From the NCBI RefSeq assembly GCF_006345805.1, contig NC_043006.1, positions 75,702,001 through 75,766,000 on the forward strand: a stretch of 64,000 bases of DNA. Direction: 5' to 3'. The DNA is from Octopus sinensis. Taxonomy: Eukaryota. The notes below the pieces were generated by a model. That model did no database searches. It was not told where the DNA came from and saw only the letters and a list, made by a program, of their open reading frames with translations. Position 1 is the first letter of the stretch. Every line of letters starts with the position of its first letter. Shown here in pieces: positions 11,506-62,861 of this stretch. The translations under genes were made by a program, and so were the position numbers.

Positions 11506-12534
11506 GTATATGTGTGTATGACCCGTCCTTGTTTTTTCTGTATCGTCTATCTGGATGTTTTGTTGTCCAGTTTTGAATCATTTAGTTGTCCAGATGTTTT
11601 GCGTTCTTGTCACATTTTGTATCTTATATATCTTATATCTTATATATGTATATTTATATATCTATATATGTTTGTATGTGAATGTGTGTGTTCGTGTAGG
11701 GTACCAATAAAATCGATAAAATTTTTATGGCAGAGCATAAGAAGGCATTTGGGACTAATTTAATACATTCTTAGAAATAATTTTCGGTAGGCAATCGGTA
11801 AACATATGCAGACGAAGAAATTATTTCTTACATGAATTTCTTCATTGCATACAATTAAAAAATATTATCCGACAGAAAGGAGATGCTATTTTATGAGTAT
11901 GCATGTATTTAGAAGGAAGTATAAATTCGTTTCTTCTCAGAGTAGTGCCGTAATTGAAAACAAATATTGTATTAATACTGGAGTGTTGTTTGAATAATTT
12001 CAAGATTTTTATGTATAAGAGAACTCTGTCAAATTTAGAGAATATGCATAAATGTAAGGTCAAAATGCCATCGCACACCAATTAGCGAGATCAATATTAA
12101 AAGGAAATAATATTTGTCTTATGATAATGCTCTTGACTTAAGAAAAACGGAGAGGAATTGTATCACTTTGTCTCTTTGAATGCATATGATGGTACTCAGT
12201 TGAGTAAATTTATTGGGATGTTTAACAGTATGTAGCTTTAAAAAACAATCCTGAAGTTACAAGAGGTATTTATAGAATCGATGGGCATTTAATATCGAGA
12301 AACAAGTGTGGACATAAGATTTATAGATTTAGAACAGACCTAGTACAATGTCCCAGGTAAGTAGCTGGGTAAGTAGCTGTATATATTACGGTAGACATTC
12401 TCTTCATTTAGATATCATCCTGATGTATTGATAGATTTATGCTCATTTTCCACCATAACCCTAACGAAAAGTTAATTTATATAAGTAGTTGTAACAACCC
12501 ACTAAACATTTTAAGAAATTTAATCCCAAATATT

Positions 12535-12715
12535 GGTTTCAAACTTTGGCACAGGGCCAGCAAATTAGGGGAGGGGCTAAGTTGATTACAGCAAACCCAA
12601 TACTCAACTAGTACGTATTTTATCGATCCTGAAAGAGATGAATGGGATATCAGCTTAGGTGGAGTTTGAACTCACTGTGTAAAGACTGACGTAATCATTT
12701 TCCCCGCCGCCTTAA
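12535..12715 (-). mobile_element. SINE family A, diverged (tail type 2)
   Basis: ttggtttcaaactttggcacagggccag tail, ttttatcgatcctgaaag core and gtttgaactcac B-box-like motif. Confidence 0.65.
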
Positions 12716-13567
12716 TTTAACCCATAAAATTAATAAGTAAATATAATCCGCCGTTGTGTAAATCCTTTGGTTGGATTATACCCTTTAATTCAATGATCTA
12801 GCCACGTTCAAATGTGAAGCTGATTCAACCTGAAAATATAATTAACGAGAAATATAACTATGGATAATCGATCACTTAAATTAAAATCAAAGAACTTTTG
12901 AGATTAATATGTTTAGGACCTGATAGCTCATACCTAAAAAGTCTGACTGATATCCGTTTGTTAGATGTATATTTACCAATTTAAATAGAACCAATTTAAA
13001 TAGATGTATACGAGTATTCAAGATGTTCACTTCAACAATTTCAATAGACGCGAACTACAACTTCAACAATCTTATGAATATGTTTTCATTGGAAAATTGC
13101 ATTGTAGTACTTCTTTAAGTTTTATACTTATCGCCTTTAGACAGATATATATATTTTAGATAAGCTTTGTTTATAATTTATTCGCATATGACATTTTTCA
13201 AACGTATAACCGAAAAGTTATATTTATTTGTACATCATTAATTTGATCTAATTGTGTTTCAGATGCAAACATTGATTAATTTTGAACCATCCCAGTTTCT
13301 GGTGAAAAACTACTTAACATTTTGTTTGCTGATCTTTATATCAGAACAAAAGTTTCAACTTCGCTCAAAATTTCCAGGTCTCTATGACGCTGAAGGGTTC
13401 AAATTAATACGAAACACGGACCTTGGACGGTCAACTAACGTCATTCTGGGCGATCTGTGCTTTTTATGCACAAAATCTTGTAAGAGAAAATTTTCTGAGA
13501 TAAAATATTTTTGCATGTATATATGTATCTATATTTATATATATGTATATGTTTATGTATGTATGTA

Positions 13568-13940
13568 TCATCATCATTGTTCGACCGTGGTCGAGACAAT
13601 GGAATTTACCATGCTACGTCAGACTTCACAGTCCATCATGGCATTACGGAGGTCCTGTTGCTGGATGCCTGTATCCCTGGAGATTACATCTGGGTAGGAG
13701 AGTGTGCGCCCTCTGGTATTGCGAGTAGATGGCTTCCAGAAGAGAAGAGTAGAAATTACTTCTATTTCAGCTCTACAACAATGTCCAGCAAACTGGACTC
13801 TCCTACCTTTCACAAGAGATGACACAGGTGGTAGTTTCCCATATATTTGCATTTTGGTTGGATGGCGCCTCCACGAGAGATTTTGAGCTCTCATAAGGAG
13901 GCGAGTGTAGGTTCCATCCAACCGCCTCTCAAGCTTATCA
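13568..13940 (-). mobile_element. RTE-clade LINE, 5'-truncated 3' end
   Basis: ORF 13619-13948 (ERRLDGTYTRLLMRAQNLSWRRHPT..RRVQFAGHC..LLFWKP) is a typical RTE C-terminus. It is followed by a short (TGA)n tail. Confidence 0.85.
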
Positions 13941-14519
13941 CACAACATAAATAATTATAAAAACCAAAAGACGCCAATTGTTGCCACTTATATATATATT
14001 TTCTGATATATATAAGTTCCATTATATATATAGTCACTTCAGGTTCTTTTGGTTTCGAAAAAGACGAAAGTCCGTGTGAAAGGACGGCTGGATTGTAAAA
14101 TTTAATTTAAATGTCTGTGTTATGAGCGTCAGCGTTAACTATTCAATCATATATAAATTTCAATCGAGTGCTATCTACAACCACCGAACTTCACTTCATT
14201 ATATCTCAAACACATAGCAATTGAAACCCTTTCATGTCCAAGATAGTCGCATGTCACCACAACATACAACAATAATATACGTGTGTATATATATGTATAT
14301 AATTAAGTATCTAAGTCTTCTACGTGTAACTGCAACAAAAAATATATAAACAATTACATCTTCAATACAACAACTCTTTTATCCATTTAAATTAGTTGGT
14401 ATGAAAAACATTGTTTAAATAAAATAATAATAATTCATATATATTATTTTCTCGGAGGTATAATTCTCTAATTTTGCTAATATGGACTTAAGAGTGTAAA
14501 TGGGATATCTAAAATAACC

Positions 14520-15270
<751 letters not shown>

Positions 15271-27286: not shown

Positions 27287-28015
27287 GTTGGCGAGCTGGC
27301 AGAAACGTTAGCACTCTGGGCGAAATGCTTAGCGGTATTTTGTCTGCTGCTACGTTCTGAGTTCAAATTCCACCGAGGTCGACTTTGCCTTTCATCCTTT
27401 CGGGAGCGATAAAATAAGTACCAGTTACGCACTGGAGTCGATATAATCGACTTAATCCGTTTGTCTGTCCTTGTTTGTCCTCTCTGTGTTTAGCCCCTTG
27501 TAGGTAGTATAGAAATATATATTTCGTCTGCTGCTACGTTCTAAGTTCAAATTCCGCCGAGGTCGACTTTGCCTTTCATCATTTCGGGGTCGATTAAATA
27601 AGTACCAGTTACGCACTGGGGTCGATATAATGGACTTAATCAGTTTGTCTGTCCTTGTTTGTCCTCTCTGTGTTTAACCCCTTGTGGGTAGTAAAAAATA
27701 GGTATTTCGTCTGCCACTACGTTCTGATTTCAAATTGCGCCGAGGCCGACTTTGTCTTTCATCCTTTCGGAGTCGATTTAATCTCTGGGTTCGACATAAT
27801 CGACTTGATCAGTTTGTCTGTCCTTGTTTGTCCTCTCTGTGTTTTGTCCCTTGTGGGTAGTAAGGAAATAGCTATTTCTTCTGTATTTACGTTCTGAGTT
27901 GAAATTCCGCCGAAGTCGACATTGTGTTTCATTCTTTCATAGTCGAGAAATTAAGTACCATTTACTACCGGGGTCGATATAATCGATTGGCCCCCACTCT
28001 CCCAAAATTGATGGG
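27287..28015 (+). mobile_element. SINE family A tetramer-like array
   Basis: One head, then ~185-bp units restarting at tatttcgtctg (~27520, 27703, 27873). The last unit ends in tail type 2. Confidence 0.9.
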
Positions 28016-28677: not shown

Positions 28678-28844
28678 GATGGTTTGTTGCCAGCTTAGTG
28701 TGGCAGGCCCAGGAAAGGGGAGAATGCTACTGCTATTTAACTCCAAGAAACAACGTTTCTAGTTGGCTATGTGGCACAAGCCTTCTGTGTCCTTAAGTTT
28801 TCAAACAGGGGAAATCAGCACTTCTACCCAACAAAGCCAGCACA

Positions 28845-28883
28845 CAGAGACTAGTTTCAGGGTAGTTGCTCTTCATCAGTCTG
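28845..28883 (-). ncRNA. Type I minimal hammerhead ribozyme
   Basis: Minus strand caga-CTGATGA-agag-caacta-ccct-GAAA-cta-GTC-tctg. Stem I is a perfect 4 bp, stem III is palindromic (actagt). Adjacent 28685-28790 is homologous to the 25088-25190 arm. Confidence 0.75.
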
Positions 28884-28959
28884 GAGTAGCTTGGCGTTGC
28901 TAGCTGAATTCTTTATTATAAGCATATAGCTCTGAGAAAGAAGCGACGAAGAAAGACAG

Positions 28960-30590
28960 ACAACACAATACAGTGGGGTACATAAAACAAAAATCCAATA
29001 AATATGAATATAGTGATATAATGAGAAAACGGAAATGTCTTATTTGCGCCCCATTTAACAGTATATGCAGTTCATGTTCGTATGCACTTTATGGTTCTAT
29101 TTTTTTAAAACACATTTCAATTATACATATTTTACTTACGATTTTCATCGACAAAGTATTGCACAATGTCTTCGAATGCCATCACTGGTGGCAACTCGTC
29201 ACATCTAGACCACAACGCCGTTTCATCAATCCGCTCACCGAACAATTCTTTCAATTTATCCGCTCTATCACTTTCCAGCAAAACTGCTCTATCGTGCTCT
29301 GTATATTCACTTCCTGTTATCTTAACTCTTATAACATTTGTCTGTTTCTATACTCTTTATGTATTCCACCATTCTCCTCAAATTTCTTCTTTTCGCTTCC
29401 TCTTTCCAATTTCCATTTCCATTCTCTCCCGATGTTCCTGGTACTTGTGTATCCATCTTACTGCCGCTCCACGTTGTTGCTTCCTTTCCTTTCTGCATGC
29501 TTTCTTTTTCGTTTGCTCTCTCTTTTGCAATTTTCTTTTTTGATTCTTCTGCATCTTCTATCTGCATCTCCTCCGAATTGCATTTTCTCTTTTTTCTGTG
29601 GGCTTTTTGGAGACAATAATGCATTTCCTCCCTCTTTTTCTTTCTCTTTCCGATTGGATGTTTCGCTTCTGTTGCTTCCATTACTTCCTTTACCTGGCCT
29701 TGCGCCGCCACACCTTGCTCCTCCTGCTCCTGGTCTACCCCCTGTTCCACTTCTTGTTTTTTGGGACAACTCGTTTACATGTGACCCCGTGCTCCACAGT
29801 GGTAGCATTTGTCCTCCGGTAACACAATGGTAACACAATCTCATCCACACTTTTTTGCAGATCCGGGACGCTGATTTGGACGGTCACCGCAAGGCCGTAT
29901 CCAAACCAGTTCACTTCCGTTGTCCTCGTGACCTTCAAGACATTGGTTTCCTCCTCGGCGTTGAAGATGATTGCCGCCACTAGCCATGTTTCATCAATTT
30001 CTGGGAGTACTCTGCTAATCCTAATTCTGGCCGTACGTTTTCCACAATAGGTCGGCAGCAGTGCCCACTCATCCGATCTTAATGGCACAGTGGAGCAATT
30101 TATGGCGTCTTCTGTCGTAAACCGTACCTCCACTGTGCTGTACTTCTTGTCTCTGGTGTAGTACGTGGTAAGGTGTTTCACCTCCTTGAGGCACTCCTCA
30201 GTTTCTTCAATGCTTGCTAATTCAATCTTTTTGCTGCTGCTCGACAGTGTTCTATAAACAACCGTTTTTTCTCGCTATTTCTTCCAATGTTTCTTTTGGA
30301 TGGGTCAGTCTCAGGCTGTTTCCTTCTTTAACAATTAGCTCATTAGCTTTTCAAAGTCTTCTTTCGTCTAACCTGACTTCCTTGTCTTGTACAACGTCGC
30401 TATTTGCACACCTTCCTGCTGCTGTAGCATAGCTAACGGCTGGCTAAGTGTGCCTAGCTTCGTTGGTTAATATAAAAATTGTCAGAAATTGTCTTCACAA
30501 ATTTACAATTCAATAAATAATTTGCAGAAATTATACAAAAATTCACGATAACAGAACAGGAAACGAACTCACATACTGCAGGTAATAACT
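28960..30590 (-). mobile_element. ORF1/gag-only retro-element, copy 1 (decayed)
   Basis: Minus strand SYATAAG..ARKTVVYRTL..EECLKEVKHLTTYYTRDKKYSTVEVRF..NWFGYGLAVTV, then a CCHC knuckle CYHCGARGHM*TSC (29766-29807), a K/E-rich linker and a C-terminal block ending ~29160. No endonuclease or RT follows. Boundaries are approximate. Confidence 0.7.
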
Positions 30591-30749
30591 TAAAACAACA
30601 CCGTGTCGTAGACTAAAAAGGATGGCTTGGTAGCTTAATTCTATATTACTGGCATAAGGCCTAATTACAGAGAGGACATACAAAGACATGCGGGAACAAA
30701 AAGTACGTGAAAGGATGAATGTGAAATTAATAAAATTACAATGCAAATG

Positions 30750-32643
30750 AGAGGGCCATCTCGCTCCCGCTGCGAGATGAATCCGCGGATTCTTTTCCCT
30801 TTAAACCTTTACCGACGTTTTTTTGCTTCGGTGCGTTTTTTTTTGTCGGTTGAATTGTTTTGTGCTGCTTTACAGCGGTGTTTGTGTATGACGCCACCAT
30901 TGTTTGGTGAGCATTGCTGAGATGGAGAAGATGAAGACATGTGCGACAGCGACAAGGATTCTGGCGTCCGTCGTCCCGGACCTGCTGAAGCAATACGAGA
31001 TACATTGAAATGAAGACATGGCTAAGAAATTTGGAAAATATCTAGAGATGGTACAGAAATTACGTGAGTCAACCCCATCAGAGGAGGAAAAGGCGAAAAT
31101 AGAAATTACGGTGGTGGAATATAAATCATTTTCAAATAAAGAATGGAGAGCGCAACGAAGGAGGATGTGTAGGAGTGTTTGAAGGAAATGAAGGATGTGT
31201 CGTTTTTCGCAAGAGGCAAGACATACGCGTCTGTAGAGATCACATTTGTATCGGAAGAGGCTGCAAGGAAATACACCAATGAGACGTTAACTGGTGGAAA
31301 TCGGATGCTCTTTCCCAATCTCCTGGGTAGACGTCCACACGGAAAATAGAGCTGGAATGGGTAATGGCAGTATTTTTTTCTGGAAAAAAGGAAGAAGTAG
31401 GGGTAGTTATGATAACCAGAACCCAACAAATAAATTGTTGGGGGTATGGTTTGGAGGTGGTTTTCACGGCAAGTCAGGCAATATACGATACTATACTGGA
31501 GACACTGGAACTGCCAATCGAGGAAAAGCGGGATACAATGTTGGAAGGGAGTCCTGCAAAGTGCTATGAATGAGACAAAAGAGGTAGCCTTAGAAGGTGT
31601 CCAAAAATAATGGAAAACAGAAATGAAAACGTTAGAAGGCGTGATAGAGGAGAAGAAACAAAGCAAGAGGACCAGAGAGCTGATTTTGAGGAAGCTAAGT
31701 CAAGGAAGCGAGAAAGGAAGGGCTCATCGCCAAAATTTGAACAATAAAAGAAATATAAATCACAAGATCTAGTGGGATCACCGAGGAAAGAAGATTAAAG
31801 CAGAACATCACCAAACAGACGGATTCACAGGCGCATAAACACACAGACATACATACACACGGAAGCGTGAAAGATAAGATAGAGTTGCAAAGACCAAAAA
31901 AACAAATAACCTGAAAGCACAGACACACAGACATAATATGCAGATCCACATACAAATAAACACACATACATACAGCTACAAATAAATATGCAAGAACAGA
32001 CACATGATAGTACAGAGTCACAAAAACAAAAAAGAATAGATGTACAGACGCAAGAGCTACACAGGAACAGAATATATTTGATAAAATATCGGTCGACACA
32101 AAAAAAATAGAAAGGAAAATAAATGAAAGACATTGTTAAAGTAGACCTCTCGGAGTGTTATGATAAGGAGACGAGCAGGATTTTAATGGAAAAAGATAAT
32201 TATAAAAAATTAAAAGAGGCTTTCTCATCAGATATAAAGCCATTGGGGACCGAGGTGAATTTCGAACCCAGCGCTCCAGTGGTGAACTATGGGGAAATTA
32301 AGAACTATATAAAATGGTAAGTAGAGTTTTATGTTGTAAAGAACTGTTGAGTTAATTGTGAAAAGAACTTTTGATGTTTAAATAATTTTGAAAAGACTGC
32401 TGAGATAATTGTGAAAAGATGTTTTTAAAAATGTTGAAATAATTGTGAAAAGAACTTTTGATGTTGAAATAATTTTGAAGTTTTGAAATAATTGAAATAA
32501 AGTAACAACCCCGGAGCGGGGCTGGGGTGGCCGTTCCTTCTTCATTGTATAATTTCACTATTCCATTCTTTCATGTGTTGATGGTCCCCGCATGTGTGTA
32601 TTGTCCCATCTATATTTTAGCCCCTTGTTGGTAATAAATAAAT
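30750..32643 (+). mobile_element. ORF1/gag-only retro-element, copy 2 (decayed), head-to-head with copy 1
   Basis: ATG at 30922 (MEKMKTCATAT). ECLKEMKDVSFFARGKTYASVEITF..INCWGYGLEVVF..EGSPAKCYE* aligns with copy 1. C-terminal ORF 32123-32320. The 3' end is tttagccccttgttggtaataaataaat. Confidence 0.7.
32341..32480. repeat. Degenerate ~23-31-bp minisatellite in the 3' UTR of copy 2
   Basis: Repeated taattgtgaaaagaacttttgatgtt(g/t)aaa motif. Confidence 0.75.
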
Positions 32644-33375
32644 CAGTTGCAAAATTTACTTATTTTTCTTTTTTTTTTCTATAAAAAGTTCAAACAAATA
32701 TTTCACTCAGTTACAGTCTTTACAAATTTATATCGACTTACCTATTCTGTCTCTTACAATGTCTTTCAATTTTGCAATCTTTACGTTGGGGTGTCCTATC
32801 TCACTATAATTTTCCTTTTGTTTGTGTTTTTCATGTGGTTGCGTCTATGTGTCTGTGTTGTTCTTTTGACTGCAACTCTACCTGTTTCGTCTGTGTGTCT
32901 CTCTCTTTAGGTTTCCGTAATTATGGTTGTCCTGTTTCTGGTCTGAATGATTCTGTACTTGTAATTCATTTACTGCTACTTCTATTGGTAAATTTTGTCC
33001 ATTTGTCGTCGTGGGCTGGGTCTCCTCTTCCATTCCTTTACACTTCTTCAATCCCACTGTCGTCGGTGACACCCTGGGTTTCACCTCCGCAAAATTCCCG
33101 CCATGTTCTGCTTTCTGTTTCTGCTCTTTATCTACCATTTTTTCCTCCTGAACACTCTCCGAATAAATCAATAGGCAATGCGGATGATTTCATTAGTTAC
33201 TGTAGCGCTGTCTCTCAGTTTAAAACGAGTTTCAAAATTGTCTTAACGTCTCAGCTACATTCTGTTAACTAGTCATCTGTAATAAGCAGTATTTAGTAGG
33301 GTGCTCTCAGAGTGCTGGCACAGCCGTCTCTTTGAATCTGGAATGACAAAAGTGACAGCTTATTAATTGAATTCT

Positions 33376-34468: not shown

Positions 34469-34751
34469 ATATTCTGTTGTATCTGGAGAAAGTCATTTTC
34501 TTTTTCTGCCTTATAATATAACACAGTCACTGGTAAAATTTCCACTTTTTTCTTATTTTTATTGTCTTAAAATTTTCGTTGCGTCTTACAACATTTTCCA
34601 TAGTTTTGACTCAAAACTATGGAAAAGGTTGCAAGACGCAACGAAAATTCTAGGACAATAAAAATAAGAAAAACGTGGAAATTTTACCAGTGAGTGTGTT
34701 ACATAATAAGGCACAAAAAGAAAATGACTCTCCCCAAACACAACAGAATAT
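34469..34751. repeat. 283-bp near-perfect palindrome
   Basis: 141-bp arms centred on C34610 (tagttttga-c-tcaaaacta), with scattered mismatches. Confidence 0.92.
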
Positions 34752-38154: not shown

Positions 38155-39172
38155 AGTAGTAGCTGTGTTAAGAAGTTTGCCTCCCAGCCTTATGATTCTG
38201 GGTTCTGTCCCATAGTGTACCACTTTGGGAGAGTGTCATCTACTATAGCCTCAGTCCGATCAAAGACTTGTACGTGAATTTGGAAGACGGAAACTGAAAG
38301 ATTCCGTCTTTCAGTAAGGCGGCGAGCTGGCAGAAACGTTAGCACGCCGGGCGAAATGCTTAGCGGTATTTCGTCTGCCGTTACGTTCTGAGTTCAAATT
38401 CCCCCGAGGTCGACTTGGCCTTTCATCCTTTCAGGGTCGATAAATTAAGTACCAGTTACGCACTGGAGCCGATGTAATCGACGTAATACCTTTGTCCGTC
38501 CTTGTTTGTCCCCTCTATGTTTAGCTCCTTGTGGGTAATAAAGAAAAAGATATTTCGTCTGCCGTTACGTTCTGAGTTCAATTTCCGCCGAGGTCGACTT
38601 GGCCTTTCATCCTTTCAGGTTCGATAAATTAAGTACCAGTTACGCACTGGAGTCGATGTAATCGACGTAATCCCTTTGTCTGTCCTTGTTTGTCCCCTCT
38701 ATGTTTAGCTCCTTGTGGGTAATAAAGAGAAAGGTATTTCGTCTGCCGTTACGTTCTGAGTTCAATTTCCGTCGAGGTCGACTTTACCCGTCATCCTTTC
38801 CGGGTCGATAAATTAAGTGCCAATTACAAACTGGGGTCGATATAATCGACTTAATCTCTTTGTCTGTTCTTGTTTGTACCTTCTATGTTTAGCCCCTTGT
38901 AGGCCATAAAAAAATAAGGAAACTGAAAGATTCCCGTCATATATATCTATGTCTATATCCACATGTGTCTTGTGTTTGTGTTTGTCCCTCACCATCTCTT
39001 GACAACCGTTGTTGGTATGTTTACGTCCCCGTAACGTAGCGGTTTGGCACAAGCAGCCTATAGACTAAGATTTTATAAAAAAGTTCTGGAGTTGATTAAT
39101 TCGATTAAAATTCCTCAAGGTAGTGCCCCAGAATGGCCGCACTCTAATGACTGAAACAATTAAAAGATAAAA
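38155..39172 (+). mobile_element. Old SINE family B copy interrupted by a family A trimer
   Basis: The 5' half runs to 38308 and the 3' half resumes at 38918, continuing the family B consensus. Confidence 0.85.
38316..38917 (+). mobile_element. SINE family A trimer with ~20-bp TSD
   Basis: Head plus three ~185-bp units. TSD ggaaactgaaagattcc(c)gtc at 38289-38308 and 38918-38938. Confidence 0.92.
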
Positions 39173-49860: not shown

Positions 49861-50805
49861 ATAAAACCGGCTGACAAGGGTGGATCCGTGGTGGTGTGGC
49901 GCGCAGCCTTCTACAAGGCAGAAGCTGTCCGCCAACTTCAAGACACTTCCTTCTCTTGCCTTCTGCCCTCCAACGCCACGCCTACCTACCAACAGAGTGT
50001 GTCCGCCACTAGTCATGAACGTATCTCCTCCTCCCATTTCCCTCTCACCGCCTCCAACCTCTTTGTCCACACTCCACGCAACTCCACCATTTATTTCCTT
50101 CCCCAAATCCACTAGCCCAATAATTCCGGCCGCCCCTTCGTCTCCGCTTGTAACTACTCCATGGAATTGATCTCAAAATATCTTAACCGTGTCCTTTCGC
50201 TCCTAGTAGCTTGCCTCCTCTTCCACATCTATGACACTAACCATGCTCTCCCTCTCTTCAACTCTTTCCCCTTGTCTTCTGGCCCCTCTAAACTTCTTTT
50301 CACTTTTGATATCAATAATCGAAATACGGTGATCCCACACAACGAATAACCTCTTGCACTCAAACACTTCTTAGACCTCACACATCCACACTTCTTCGTC
50401 TGACCGAACTTGTTCTCTCCCTCAACTGCTTCTCTTTCATGGAAGAGTTTTACCAATATGTCTCGGGAGTGGCCATGGTAACAAGAACGGGACCCAGCTA
50501 TGCTAACCTGTTAGTTGGGCCCAACGCGCACCTTCGTTTTGGGATCACCATCACTTTATTATCTCCCCTTCTTTCTACCTCTCCTCTCAAATCGTCCTTT
50601 CCAAACCAGTTGCCATGCTTGATCAATAAATACACAAGTTTTTTATTATCATTCTCTCTCTCTCTCTCTCTGTTTCTTTTCTCTTATTCCTTTCTTTGGG
50701 GAGAGTGGGCTCGAAACGTAAAAGAATTTCTCACTTTTCCGAGCGTCAAACTAAAACACCTTCGTTGTTCATACATTTTCGTCTTTTGTTTTTCTGTAAC
50801 TTTCA
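49861..50805 (+). mobile_element. Penelope-like element: RT fragment plus terminal repeat
   Basis: IKPADKGGSVVVW..YFLPQIH..GRPFVS..GVAMVTRTGPSYANLLVG (to ~50520) are Penelope RT motifs. A degenerate hammerhead gctcgaaacgta lies at ~50690-50725. Confidence 0.88.
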
Positions 50806-53746: not shown

Positions 53747-54385
53747 TATATATATGCATATCTGTATGTATTTGTATTTATACACACTCACACACAGCTA
53801 TATGAAGCATGTGTGTTTATATATACATATGTATGAATCTTTAATTATATATTTATCTATCGCTGAGTGTTTGGTCTGTCTGCCTGGGCGCCTGTATGTA
53901 ATACGTATATACTATCGTTTTATTCATTTCCATAATGGTACAAGCGTTGATGATCGGATTTAGTAAGCGAAAGCATAAACACAGCAGCTTTTGAGACAAC
54001 CGCGCGTATAGATTTCCTATTGAATATATGTTAAATAAACATATATTTAATATCGCTGAGTAAATATGCAGTTCCCACTAATCCTATATGATTTGCCGAC
54101 ATATAGTGTGAAATTGGTCGTCATATATCTATGTTTTGACATTAAGAATTGATGTCTGTATTATATTTTGTAAATAACGTTTTACGTACGTGGCGTTTCA
54201 AATCACTACTGTTGTGGTATTTTGTTATTAAATCCCGCTTGCCGATCTAAAATCACTTATGTAAATGACTCAATGCTGGTTGTATTTCTTTTGCCTTTCT
54301 CGTCATGATTTTTTGGTTCATGACCTGGGTGATTCAGAAATGTTTTACACAACTTTACTGAGTCGTATGATAAACAGAACGTATC

Positions 54386-55025
54386 TATTTCTTTACTGCC
54401 CAGAAGGGGCTATACATAGAGGGGACAAACAAGGACAGACGAAGGGATTGAGTCGATTATATCGACCCCAGTGCGAAACTGGTACTTTATTTATCGACCC
54501 CGAAAGGATGAAAGGCAAAGTTGACCTCGGCGGAATTTGAACTCAGAACGTAACGACAGACGAAATACAGCTAAGCACTTCGCCCGTATCTATTTCTTTA
54601 CTGCCCAGAAGGGGCTAAACATAGAGGAGACAAACAAGGACAGACGAAGGGATTGAGTCGATTATATCGACCCCAGTGCGAAACTGGTACTTATTTATCG
54701 TCCCCGAAAGGATGAAAGGCAAAGTTGACCTCGGCGGAATTTGAACTCAGAACGTAACGACAGACGAAATACAGCTAAGCACTTCGCCCGTATCTATTTC
54801 TTTACTGCCCAGAAGGGGCTAAACATAGAGGGGACAAACAAGGACAGACGAAGGGATTGAGTCGATTATATCGACCCCAGTGCGAAACTGGTACTTTATT
54901 TATCGTCCCCGAAAGGATGAAAGGCAAAGTTGACCTCGGCGGAATTTGAACTCAGAACGTAATGACAGACGAAATACAGCTAAGCACTTCGCCCGGCGCG
55001 CTAACGTGTCTGCCAGCTCGCCGCC
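54386..55025 (-). mobile_element. Young SINE family A trimer with 15-bp TSD
   Basis: Near-identical units of 205/204/205 bp starting at 54381, 54586 and 54790, with a single head at 54995-55025. taaacagaacgtatc occurs at 54371-54385 and 55026-55040. Confidence 0.95.
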
Positions 55026-58490: not shown

Positions 58491-59784
58491 CGAGGGACGT
58501 TCAATAAGTAATGCCCCTGACCCACTTGCAGTTGTTTGATCCAGCTAAAATTTTGTATGTGCAATTATTCATATCTCCACAGATTAAGTGATAAACTACA
58601 GCCTTGAACTAATTGTGGTTTCTGATTTACAGGAGTTTGAAATGAGTCAAGTGTGAAATGGAGCCTGTTGAGTGTCGAACAGTGATCCGGTTTTTGTATT
58701 TGAAAGGACGCACACCAAGGGAGACTTTTAATGAAATGAAAGTAACTTATGGTGATGATGCCCCATCATATGACCTTGTAAAACGCTGGCATCGTAAATT
58801 CAAACATGGTCGGAACTCTGTGGAAAAAGCTCCCAGATCTGGTCGCTCCCCTTCTGCCATTGATGAGGTATCTGTCTGTCAAGTTGAGGCTGCCATTTTG
58901 GAAGATCGATACATAACTATTCGCCAAATAGCCCATGAGGTCAAGATTAGTACCAGGTCTGTGGAAACTATCATTCATGATTATTTGCATATGCAAAAGG
59001 TGTCTGCCAGATGGATTCCCAGGTTGCTCACACCTTTCCAGAAGCAAGAACGCGTCGAGTGCTCGAGGATGAATTTGGAGATGGGTCAAGAAGATGAGTC
59101 AAATTTTTTCAAAAGTCTGATTACACAGGATGAAACCTGGGTCCATCACTATGATCCAGATACCAAAGCCCAGTCAATGCAGTGGAAGCACCGTGACTCA
59201 CCTCCTCCAAAGAAGGCAAGGGTGCAACCCTCCGCTGGCAAGGTCATGCTCATAGTCTTCTGGGACCAGGACGGAGTAGTGATGACAGATTTCCTGGCAA
59301 AAGGTACCATAATTACAGGAGCCTATTATGCTTCACTTTTGAAGAAATTAAGAGAAGCTATCAAAATCAAGAGGCGGGGCAAGATCAGCAAAGGCATCTT
59401 CCTCCTGTAGGACAACGTTCCGGTCCACAACTCGCGTATCACCAGATCAGAAGCACAGGCGTACGGCTATGAACTCCTACCCCATCCCCTCATCTCTCCT
59501 GACCTTGCACCCTCTGATTCTCACCTCTTCCCAGCCATGAAATTGTTTTTGAAAGGAAAGCGTTTCCCAGATGATGCAGCCTTGATTTCTGAAGTCACGT
59601 CGTGGTTGGAGGACCAAGCTGGGGGTCTTCTCTAAAAACGGTCTCCAGAGCTGCATCAAACGATGGGAGAAATGCGTAACTCTGTGTGGTTCCTATGTAG
59701 AAAAAGACTAATAACTGTGCCACGTTTCGTTGCTCTACTGCTATGGGAAGTGGGTCAGGGGCATTACTTATTGAACGCCCCTCG
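58491..59784 (+). mobile_element. Full-length mariner transposon (1294 bp, DD34D)
   Basis: TA flanks. 37-bp TIRs with one mismatch (cgaggg[a/g]cgttcaataagtaatgcccctgacccactt). Confidence 0.97.
58658..59711 (+). pseudogene. Mariner transposase with one nonsense codon and one frameshift
   Basis: WIPRLLT and ITQDETWV motifs; TAG at 59408-59410 directly before DNVPVH; 34 residues to the D of SPDLAPSD; an extra G in a G-run near 59621-59625; ends RWEKCVTLCGSYVEKD*. Confidence 0.95.
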
Positions 59785-60207: not shown

Positions 60208-60787
60208 ATTCTTTTCTAGGCACAAGGCCCGAATTTCTTTGGGGGTCGGGGCAGTAGATTACATCGACTCCAGTACGCAACTGGTACTTACTTTATCGAC
60301 CTCGAAGGTATGAAAGGCAAAGTCGACCTCGGTGGAATTTGAACTCAGAACGAAAAGACAGACGAAATACCTACTTCTTTACTACCCACAAGGGGCTAAA
60401 CACAGAGAGGACAAACAAGGTCAGACAAACGGATTAAGTCGATTATATCGACCCCAATGCATAACTTGTACTTAATTTATCGACCCCGAAGGGATGAAAG
60501 GCAAAGTCGACCTCGGTGGAATCTGAACTCAGAACGTAGCGGCAGACTAAATACCTACTTCTTTACTACCCACAAGGGGCTAAACACAGAGAGGACAAAC
60601 GAGGACAGACAGGCGGATTAAGTCGATTATATCGACCCCAGTGCGTAACTGGTACTTATTTAATCGACCCCGAAAGTATGAAAGACAAAGTCGACCTCAG
60701 CGAAATTTGAACTCAGAACGTAACGGCAGACAAAATACTGCTACGCATTTCACCCGGCGTGCTAACGTTTCTACCAGCTCTCCGCCT
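60208..60787 (-). mobile_element. SINE family A trimer (tail1-tail1-tail2)
   Basis: Head at ~60760-60787, two tail-1 units, and a terminal unit ending ggccttgtgcctagaaaag. Confidence 0.9.
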
Positions 60788-61929: not shown

Positions 61930-62861
61930 CTTACTACTATAGGCACAAAGCCTGGATGTTTGTGGGGAGGGAGACAATACATCATATCGACACCAGTACT
62001 TGACTGGTACTTTATCGACTCCGAAAGGATGAAAGGCAAAGTCTCTGAAAGGATGAAAAGCGAAATTTGAGCTCGGACGAAATACATATTTCTTTACTAC
62101 CCACAAGGGGCTAAACACAGAGAGAACAAACAAGGAGAGACAAACGGATTAAGTTGATTATATCAACTCCAGTGCGTAACTGGTACTTATTTAATCGATT
62201 CCGAAAGGATGAATGGCAAAGTCGACCTCGGCGGAATTTGAACTCTGAACGTAGCGGCAGACGAAATACTTATTTCTTTCCTACCCGCAAGGGGCTAAAC
62301 ACAGAGAGGACAAACAAGGTCAAACAAACGGATTAAATCAATTATATCGATACCAGTGCGTAACTGGTACTTGTTTAATCGACCACGAAAGGATGAAAGG
62401 CAAAGTCGACCTCGGCGGAATTTAAACTCAGTGGGTGACAACCATTAATACCTATTTCAGCGCCAGAAAACTTTGTTGACAAAGAACAGCAGAAATTGTA
62501 TTCACCTCAATAGAGGTCATTGATTGGTTGAAATTGCCGAAATGCAAGAAATCTAACAAGAAATTGCTTACAAACTACAGAATTTTCTCAAGAAAGCCAA
62601 GAGAAAAAGATGTTTTATGTAACACATTCTACCAGTATACAAAGTTTAAAAGTGTTTAGTTACAAAGAAATTATTTTAAAATTCCGCCGGTCAAAGTTAA
62701 AAAAATCCTCAGTGCGTCACTGGTACTTAATTTATCGACTCCGAAAGGATGAAAGGCAAAGTCGACCTCGGCGGCGGAATTTGAACTCAGAACGCAGCGG
62801 CGGACGAAATACCACAAAGTATTTCGCCCGGCGTGCTAACGTCTCTGCCAGCTCGCCGCCT
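61930..62861 (-). mobile_element. SINE family A array interrupted by an unclassified repeat (62434-62707)
   Basis: Head unit at 62708-62861; further units at 61930-62431, ending in tail 2. Confidence 0.85.

Follow-up and report, generated by a model that had tools for sequence, protein, structure and literature searches.

The 64-kb stretch of Octopus sinensis DNA analysed here (the window; G000:C10:75702001-75766000) carries, between positions 28906 and 33165, three decayed copies (designated A, B and C) of a retroelement family that encodes only the first open reading frame (ORF1) of a long interspersed element (LINE). The account that we regard as probable is that this family is copied in trans, likely by means of a Tx1-like 3′ tail, and that it inserts at the predicted starts of other repeats, likely using their promoters. 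This account is built on the lack of ORF2, the shared tail, target-site duplications of at least 11 nt, purifying selection on ORF1, a fixed insertion base, and the spacing of this base to a U2-type motif or a TATA-like box. The family is real, large, partly young and ORF1-only. The window copies themselves are dead and ordinary, and the interest lies in the start-site rule. The initial annotation of the window, which described a cluster of ORF1/gag-only elements in alternating orientation, had already suggested that the clustering reflects targeting, and this can now be specified as insertion at a fixed base.

ORF1-only organization and selection on ORF1

Loci sampled from the octopus genome are designated by L numbers. 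Each search of this genome turned up 12,000-15,000 candidates, of which 150 were scored in order of their similarity to the query. A 179-aa piece of copy A gave 11,992 first-look candidates; all 150 scored ones matched, and those listed were 46-74% identical. The first sample comprised 100 ten-kb loci (a few overlapping or duplicate) and the window, and 195 of its 212 units reached at least 100 bits. Units of the old lineage, which is that of the window and includes copies A and B, were assigned by best match. Reading downstream from ORF1, 46 of 66 such units met the tail first, 16 gave no call, two met the next ORF1, two an internal ORF2 fragment (starting at ORF2 residues 729 and 1062) and none an ORF2 start. 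Sixty fresh loci, read by rules fixed beforehand, yielded 39 tail-first units among 54, with 14 giving no call, one meeting the next ORF1 and none ORF2. Both samples combined, the tail came first in 85/120 old-lineage units and an ORF2 start in 0/120. Units of the young lineage (82/89) and of a third lineage (9/11) were also tail-first; those of the Tx1 lineages were ORF2-first in 29 of 29 cases.

In a quick tree (108 rows, midpoint root, young copies randomly thinned, rows below 170 aa dropped) the ORF2-bearing ORF1s stood apart from the old and young clades, and the third lineage fell among the ORF2-bearing ones. Two changes of the ORF2 label are needed on this tree, of which the starred branches force only one; two origins of the ORF1-only form are possible, not forced. 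The initial annotation had proposed a non-autonomous ORF1-only family of the L1/Tx1 group, and the 0/120 count, together with the placement of ORF2-bearing elements on other branches, bears this out. Homologs that mostly run on into an endonuclease and a reverse transcriptase (RT), or that belong to a host gene family, were not what we encountered, and the copies carry duplications and a LINE-type tail. It was likewise correct that neither endonuclease nor RT follows copies A and B: no Tx1-type ORF2 match occurs anywhere in the window, the sole RT-type match being a Penelope-like fragment at 49.9-50.5 kb. The term gag, in the sense of long terminal repeat (LTR) elements, does not fit, as no long direct repeats surround the copies, which are bounded by a short duplication and carry a tail of the LINE type, and tblastn with queries from Tx1, Penelope, RTE and RLE elements, a set that did not include LTR pol, located no RT after them.

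ORF1 is under purifying selection that persists across synonymous saturation. The median dN/dS of its N-domain was 0.12 (11/21 pairs computable), 0.19 (38/55), 0.12 (20/28) and 0.10 (5/6) in four sets; the ORF1s of autonomous elements gave 0.04 and 0.06. These results bear on the view that the pieces are merely deleted or truncated autonomous LINEs, for which one may cite the homology of their ORF1 to that of full LINEs, the two ORF2 fragments mentioned above, and the frequent presence of ORF2 within a few kb. Truncation during target-primed reverse transcription (TPRT) takes the 5′ end, yet these copies lack ORF2 while retaining the 5′ end, ORF1 and tail; no unit has an ORF2 start, the fragments begin deep inside ORF2, the nearby ORF2s lie in separate units with their own ORF1, and selection outlasts synonymous saturation. 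Contradicted in the sampled copies, this view is very improbable.

The ORF1 protein

The intact natural copy L031 encodes 460 aa. Modelled with a 40-sequence alignment (pLDDT 79), this protein has two RRM-like domains (residues ~50-137 and 136-220) followed by a knuckle and a long helix; a disordered linker then leads to a folded C-terminal domain. Its best fold matches are tandem-RRM proteins, in agreement with the RRM-like region expected by the initial annotation. A single-sequence fold was unusable (pLDDT 38.5). Pfam detected zf-CCHC in 32 of 40 family members and the L1 ORF1 family (Transposase_22-type) in none of the 40; on the ORF1 fragments of the window it returned nothing significant. 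L1 ORF1p was absent from the fold matches listed, which leaves L1 kinship possible. In the Atlas the first named domain family besides the zf-CCHC rows was that of the ZCCHC3 RNA-binding domains (rank 6, score 0.90). The C-terminal domain has a beta-alpha-beta-beta-alpha-beta order as read from the model only; it had no usable Atlas match, and a wide fold search barely covered it. ORF1 is predicted to encode an RNA-binding protein. A complex of ORF1 with the TATA-binding protein (TBP), predicted without alignments, scored 0.01, which speaks neither for nor against such a contact. Longer, fused forms of the ORF were absent among 1,014 candidates, which is weak evidence.

The only database homologue of near length to the intact copy is a CCHC protein of Octopus bimaculoides, and six of the ten top profile matches that were looked up come from Octopus or Argonauta. 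Many annotated octopus "CCHC-domain genes" are these elements, which calls for caution.

A second search led to the young lineage, with many intact frames of 470-504 aa in intact head-to-tail arrays. These frames are spaced by 1.8-1.9 kb, which is too small for an ORF2 to lie between them, and young copies from separate loci share 96.5-100% identity. Contigs of four sequencing runs, which we guess to be of RNA, cover a young copy, and one of them joins the empty site with 12 shared letters.

Shared tail, partner LINEs and arrays

The genome also contains full-length LINEs, which we take to be Tx1-like from their domain layout and target specificity, and not from an RT tree with named references. 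Both ORF2s inspected contain Exo_endo_phos, RVT_1 and zf-RVT above the cut-off, and the ORF1 of these LINEs is 26% identical to that of the family over 300 aa (E 4e-36). The tail of copy A ends with the motif AATAAAGAA, lacks poly(A) and scores 42 bits with the tail profile. A profile of ten Tx1 tails alone also matches copy A and other 3′ ends of the family, as well as short interspersed element (SINE) repeats in the window. The shared tail and the shared targets suggest that the family is likely copied in trans by a Tx1-like ORF2 protein.

Duplications were found at 35/76 and 18/39 first-in-array units. Some arrays (L034, L098, L100 and L117) mix lineages from distant branches with full Tx1 elements, which speaks against the arrays having arisen mainly by local duplication or unequal crossing-over of a single insert. 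The same is true of independent loci that share one insertion base, and of copies A and C of the window, which lie on different branches (the C-type being placed through its relative in L063). Local duplication does have cases in its favour, namely young arrays with near-identical units and the same spacer (L093, L095) and the segmental duplicates L033/L081/L082 and L153/L154; as the main source of the arrays it is unlikely.

Several other observations concern the tail and the arrays. At L036 (1286-2300) an inverted, rearranged array contains an in-frame fusion between the beginning of an ORF1-only unit and the C-terminal portion of a Tx1 ORF2. The window has five tandem arrays (27336-27986, 38367-38914, 54380-54995, 60253-60738 and 62076-62429) of a 184-205-nt SINE, presumably of the tRNA type, and at several of these arrays the Tx1 tail profile recognizes the 3′ end of the SINE. 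Some family copies (L044, L064, L199, L230) are inserted into the head of the same SINE.

Organization of the copies in the window

The features of the locus are listed in Table 1. On the minus strand their order is the copy C body (33165-32650), copy B in inverted orientation, the copy C tail (30812-30636), a duplication, copy A (30623-28906), the second duplication and the rest of the target repeat.

Table 1. Coordinates of the ORF1-only copies and of their target in the window
Feature	Position	Strand	Remarks
Copy A, full-length ORF1-only element	28906..30623	-	5′ untranslated region (UTR), broken ORF1, 3′ UTR, tail without poly(A)
Copy A ORF1	29132..30440	-	At least four frame pieces with stops
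Target-site duplication, 3′ copy	28893..28905	-	Junction read; agrees with the empty site
Target-site duplication, 5′ copy	30624..30635	-	Separates copy C tail from copy A 5′ end
Copy C, end of 3′ UTR and tail	30636..30812	-	Severed from copy C body by copy B
Copy B, full-length diverged ORF1-only element	30813..32642	+	Antisense in 3′ part of copy C
Copy C body (linker and start of C-terminal domain)	32650..33165	-	5′ part and upstream half of target missing
Target repeat, downstream half	28682..28905	-	~340-nt circularly permuted repeat with minimal type I hammerhead, retrozyme/Penelope terminal-repeat-like
Minimal hammerhead motif	28843..28885	-	Helix I, CUGAUGA core 28879-28873, helix II, GAAA, palindromic helix III, UC; descriptor match

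Copy A is 76% identical to the copy at L045 over 1.7 kb. Its ORF1 encodes, in order, (i) an SYA motif, (ii) RRM1, (iii) RRM2, (iv) a damaged CCHC knuckle, (v) a charged linker and (vi) the C-terminal domain; by tblastn the N-domain shares 41-48% and the C-domain 32% identity with the intact L031 ORF. All peptides quoted in the initial annotation were found, in the orientation given there, and the homology of A to B that it reported was confirmed in three blocks (20/53, 19/63 and 18/57 identities; for each block none of 1000 shuffles scored as high). The two CCHC sites that it recognized are present, but both are damaged, that of A by an internal stop and that of B by a cut after C-x2.

The weaker third piece, previously placed at 32650-33300, exists but ends at 33165; together with a previously missed 3′ UTR and tail (30636-30812) it makes up a single element. 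The body is 79-89% identical to a C-type unit of L046, with homology ending at ~33160, and the tail is 83-84% identical to the 3′ ends of C-type units in L046, L063 and L132. In L046 the C-type unit runs into this same tail and then into an A-type unit. L063 retains the upstream half of the target along with a complete C-type unit, into which a short B-type element is inserted antisense, and also has a unit of the A type. The duplication at the A/C pair measures 12-13 nt, and the same spacer lies between units in L045, L046 and L063. Copies A and C are thus arranged as a head-to-tail pair, with copy B an antisense insert that splits C.

The head-to-head appearance of A and B noted previously is therefore real as an arrangement but reflects a nested insertion, since neighbouring units share their strand in 85/87 and 16/20 cases (101/107 altogether); alternating orientation is the exception and is not supported as a property of the family. 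Copy B has a broken ORF1 (~30922-32323) and a complete tail, and some copy C sequence was lost when it inserted; neither a duplication nor a hammerhead was found at its ends. It groups with the C-type unit of L063 (SH-aLRT 99) on a long branch, and the antisense insert of L063 is a 5′-cut relative of it. In both B-type antisense inserts (window 30812; L063 ~1860-1890) the 5′ junction is nearly the same and the tail junction differs, the reverse of the usual TPRT pattern.

No A-to-G hyper-editing was seen in copy A (5/299 A). In an A-type copy at L063 (2070-3400), 84 of 288 conserved A are read as G on the sense strand (1-10 in other copies), which is suggestive of fixed ADAR-type hyper-editing.

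A hammerhead repeat as target

The A/C pair lies directly upstream of a covarying minimal hammerhead, which begins 29 bases past the end of the copy A tail profile; both this motif and the target-site duplication had been overlooked in the initial annotation. The motif meets the minimal type I hammerhead core (CUGANGA / GAAA / UH, three paired helices), and its cleavage is putative. When 13 motifs drawn from several target families were aligned, 93% of the cells paired and 9 of 11 pairs showed double changes; the covariation score was reached by 0/500 shuffles, and slid controls were 18-53% paired. Rfam, run over 26-36 kb of the window, gave microsatellite-driven matches only and did not list a hammerhead at E<=5, and monomer folding of the hammerhead region and of three tails was no better than shuffles (z -0.07 to 0.53).

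For the target repeat there were 1,887 first-look candidates, of which 40 were scored (86-90% identical), and both empty sites and inverted, 5′-cut partial copies were seen. Of 29 other copies of this repeat, four (three of them independent) bear a family tail at this same base, and the remainder mostly show the site empty. The strict hammerhead descriptor was matched past the tail in 7/33 terminal old-lineage copies, as against 12/5000 random places, 2/3300 shuffles and 0/56 SINE tails. Thirteen of the first 30 pattern-picked loci had a full tail, in every case 21-22 or 29-30 nt ahead of the core; upstream of it lay ORF1 in seven, ORF2 in one and no protein match in five (three of the 13 were already in the sample). 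An autonomous Penelope ORF tied to the repeat was not found in 30 loci with 1.5-kb flanks.

That the hammerhead lies directly past the tail in the window could mean that it belongs to the element itself, a Terminon- or retrozyme-like unit with a gag-like protein and a Penelope RT. This version is rejected because none of 88 array-internal units is followed by a hammerhead; moreover, empty hammerhead repeats are continuous across the site, and the tail matches Tx1, not Penelope. The ORFs could also be domesticated host genes like ZCCHC3, whose features ORF1 shares, and the database proteins are indeed annotated as octopus genes; the copies, however, are intronless, mostly broken, flanked by duplications and, by the first look, present in thousands. 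Taken together, these two versions are highly unlikely.

The proposal that all Tx1 targets are hammerheads proved wrong: the strict descriptor was passed by 2 of 38 Tx1 tails, one probably by chance, and L075 and L078 fail it. With ~15,800 hammerhead-core matches and ~2,070 in the reversed control, the genome has a very large load of hammerhead repeats.

Insertion at predicted transcription starts

To judge from the surrounding motifs, the insertion base coincides with the predicted transcription start (+1) of the host repeat, whose promoter is likely used. At hammerhead-type sites, an ATCAGTG-type motif occurs at -58/-59 from the first base of the duplication in six of the seven checked. U2 small nuclear RNA (snRNA) genes have an ATCAGT motif upstream in 10/10 cases, at ~-58 in the one counted. 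At L277 (1430-6900; G000:C3:19724500-19732000) a full Tx1-like LINE has inserted at the +1 of a U2 snRNA gene; the promoter above it is intact and a duplication is present. The opening bases of this copy match those at the start of a hammerhead-type target, as would be expected of a donor transcribed from the +1 of its host.

The other targets, which are unrelated in sequence, include a further repeat, the heads of SINEs and, for the young lineage, a decayed ORF1-like repeat. In 12/16 target groups in-sample a TATA-like box is located 22-38 nt above the site (35 of 39 rows kept; four self-matches at locus edges dropped). Out of sample it was found in 10 of 13 targets and in 7/8 new ones, and in exact form in 5/8 (random expectation 16.5% and 1.8%); a distal window gave 1/13.

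The decayed ORF1-like repeat (L091-L130; for example, the flanks of L113) has young-lineage elements and full Tx1s inserted 29-38 nt below a TATA-like word in former coding sequence, in arrays of up to six or more units.

The following points weigh against the account favoured here. The TATA window was chosen after the data had been seen, the motif is nearly palindromic and occurs on the other strand too in 10/16 groups, and some of the new duplications may be spurious, lying as they do far upstream or in AT-rich sequence. For U2 there is a single locus, which was noticed by its coordinates and carries an autonomous copy. Copy B obeys none of the target rules. The hammerhead was present in 1/26 terminal copies from fresh loci and in 0/15 young ones; since a relaxed core was found in 12/33 terminal copies of the first sample, the hammerhead is a target of subfamilies and not family-wide. 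A genome-wide count of the tail motif plus core (308 against 48 in the control) was discarded as evidence, being not enriched over cores alone (15,806 against 2,067). With regard to ORF2, 30 of the 120 old-lineage units gave no call, and only the 39/54 fresh count and the Tx1-tail-only profile are independent, because the tail profile was seeded on first-sample copies. Unscored candidates may include an autonomous element with a closer ORF1, since only 150 of 12,000-15,000 were scored, by likeness to the query. The dN/dS values come from copies picked for open frames.

The site may be found in either of two ways, which we consider about equally probable: the element is tethered to proteins bound at the promoter, in the manner proposed for TRE5-A, or it relies on a short sequence together with RNA pairing. 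In its strict form the latter holds that, for the same family and partner, the endonuclease chooses the site solely from a short DNA sequence, aided by pairing of read-through RNA with the target, promoters mattering only through transcription of landed copies. Many targets indeed start alike (ATCG, AGCT or ATCA past an A/T run), the L277 donor tag and U2 have their first 6 bases in common, and target choice is mainly set by the endonuclease according to Kojima 2015 (PMC4494074). Several unrelated target sequences are nevertheless used within one young lineage, the spacing of the upstream motif is constant across different repeat families, and a lone motif of 4-6 bases would occur millions of times. 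This strict form is a serious possibility, although less than probable. More tentatively, Tx1-like LINEs and several long-lived ORF1-only lineages might be general promoter parasites that lack a promoter of their own and recognize the +1 of snRNA-type or TATA promoters (in U2 genes, hammerhead repeats and other repeats) by its position, via promoter-bound proteins, possibly with their own selected ORF1p as a tether; the 5′ bases of earlier landing sites would then form a readable history.

Proposed mode of propagation

In the scheme that we favour, a copy landed at the +1 of a host repeat would be transcribed from the promoter of that repeat, so its RNA would start with the duplicated host bases. 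The ORF1p of the element might package this RNA in cis, and a Tx1 ORF2p would bind the tail and prime at another +1. Every insertion would recreate the site, so later copies of any lineage could stack head-to-tail. In the window, C and A would have been stacked at the +1 of the hammerhead repeat, with B then inserting antisense into C and the 5′ part of C being lost.

Relation to known elements

HeT-A forms head-to-tail arrays with its partners and is telomeric. ORF1-only LINE derivatives are known from the L1, Jockey and CR1 groups (PMC5753468, PMC5786205), and Tx1 is not named in PMC5786205. The octopus family extends ORF1-only riders, so far listed from few LINE clades, to the Tx1 type. Mammalian HAL1 is likewise a non-autonomous LINE derivative with ORF1p only, long-lived and possibly arisen more than once (PMC5753468, PMC5786205). 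It derives from L1 proper, whereas the octopus ORF1 is of the RRM-RRM-CCHC type of its Tx1-like partners, and the octopus family differs from HAL1 in its 3′ end without poly(A), fixed-site insertion and stacked arrays. HeT-A (Jockey clade) and Ag-Sponge (CR1 clade) are also ORF1-only and reliant on an autonomous partner, in other LINE clades (PMC5786205). Riders of this kind can persist under selection beyond synonymous saturation, which makes it a testable question what ORF1p does in cis that is worth keeping.

TRE5-A.2 of Dictyostelium is ORF1-only and moved in trans, its site is chosen by position relative to a transcription complex, and it forms TRE-TRE tandems (PMC5391098). The octopus family resembles it in coding for ORF1 only and in its tandems, probably also in its movement in trans and possibly in how its site is chosen. 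TRE5-A inserts ~47 bp upstream of tRNA genes and has an ORF1 unrelated to other ORF1s (PMC5391098), whereas the octopus family is found at the predicted +1, downstream of the promoter. TRE5-A ORF1p binds TBP in vitro (PMC5391098); for the octopus ORF1p such a contact is hypothetical. If the +1 rule is true, this would be the second non-LTR element guided by transcription complexes after Dictyostelium TRE5, here at the start site itself, and would be relevant for site-specific insertion tools.

The target-specific Tx1 clade (Tx1L in Tx1D, Keno in U2, Tx1-Mar, SINEU) shares with the octopus family fixed sites in repeats, tandem copies that sandwich a duplication, and non-autonomous riders of the same target; those riders, in contrast, are SINEs and not ORF1-coding (PMC4494074). 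Its targets comprise DNA transposons, LTR elements, microsatellites, satellites and RNA genes, target preference being defined as one sequence type in >20% of flanks, and the available portion of that paper states neither a hammerhead repeat nor a common +1 rule (PMC4494074). The target repeat resembles non-LTR retrozymes and Penelope terminal repeats in its short (~340 nt), low-GC unit, its minimal type I hammerhead, and its 5′-cut and inverted partial copies (PMC7229834, bioRxiv 10.64898/2026.07.22.740005); no Penelope ORF was tied to the repeat in the 30 loci inspected. Tx1 is not mentioned in the available part of the preprint. Judged by titles and the starts of abstracts, we found no published description of a Tx1-type ORF1-only derivative that targets start sites; Repbase or supplementary tables may already list such families.

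Other features of the window and genome

A second, intron-poor TBP-like gene is present on a small scaffold (L251; G000:C7757:278234-281473). It is unlike the multi-exon gene on C14 and possibly derives from another organism in the assembly. In the window, a decayed Penelope-like RT fragment (25-33% identity) occupies 49861-50519, and a 141-nt inverted repeat with 91% complementarity and a 1-nt loop (34469-34751) may be either an element like a miniature inverted-repeat transposable element (MITE) or an inverted insertion. A 254-aa open frame at 58646-59407 (plus strand) encodes a mariner transposase (Transposase_1, HTH_48).

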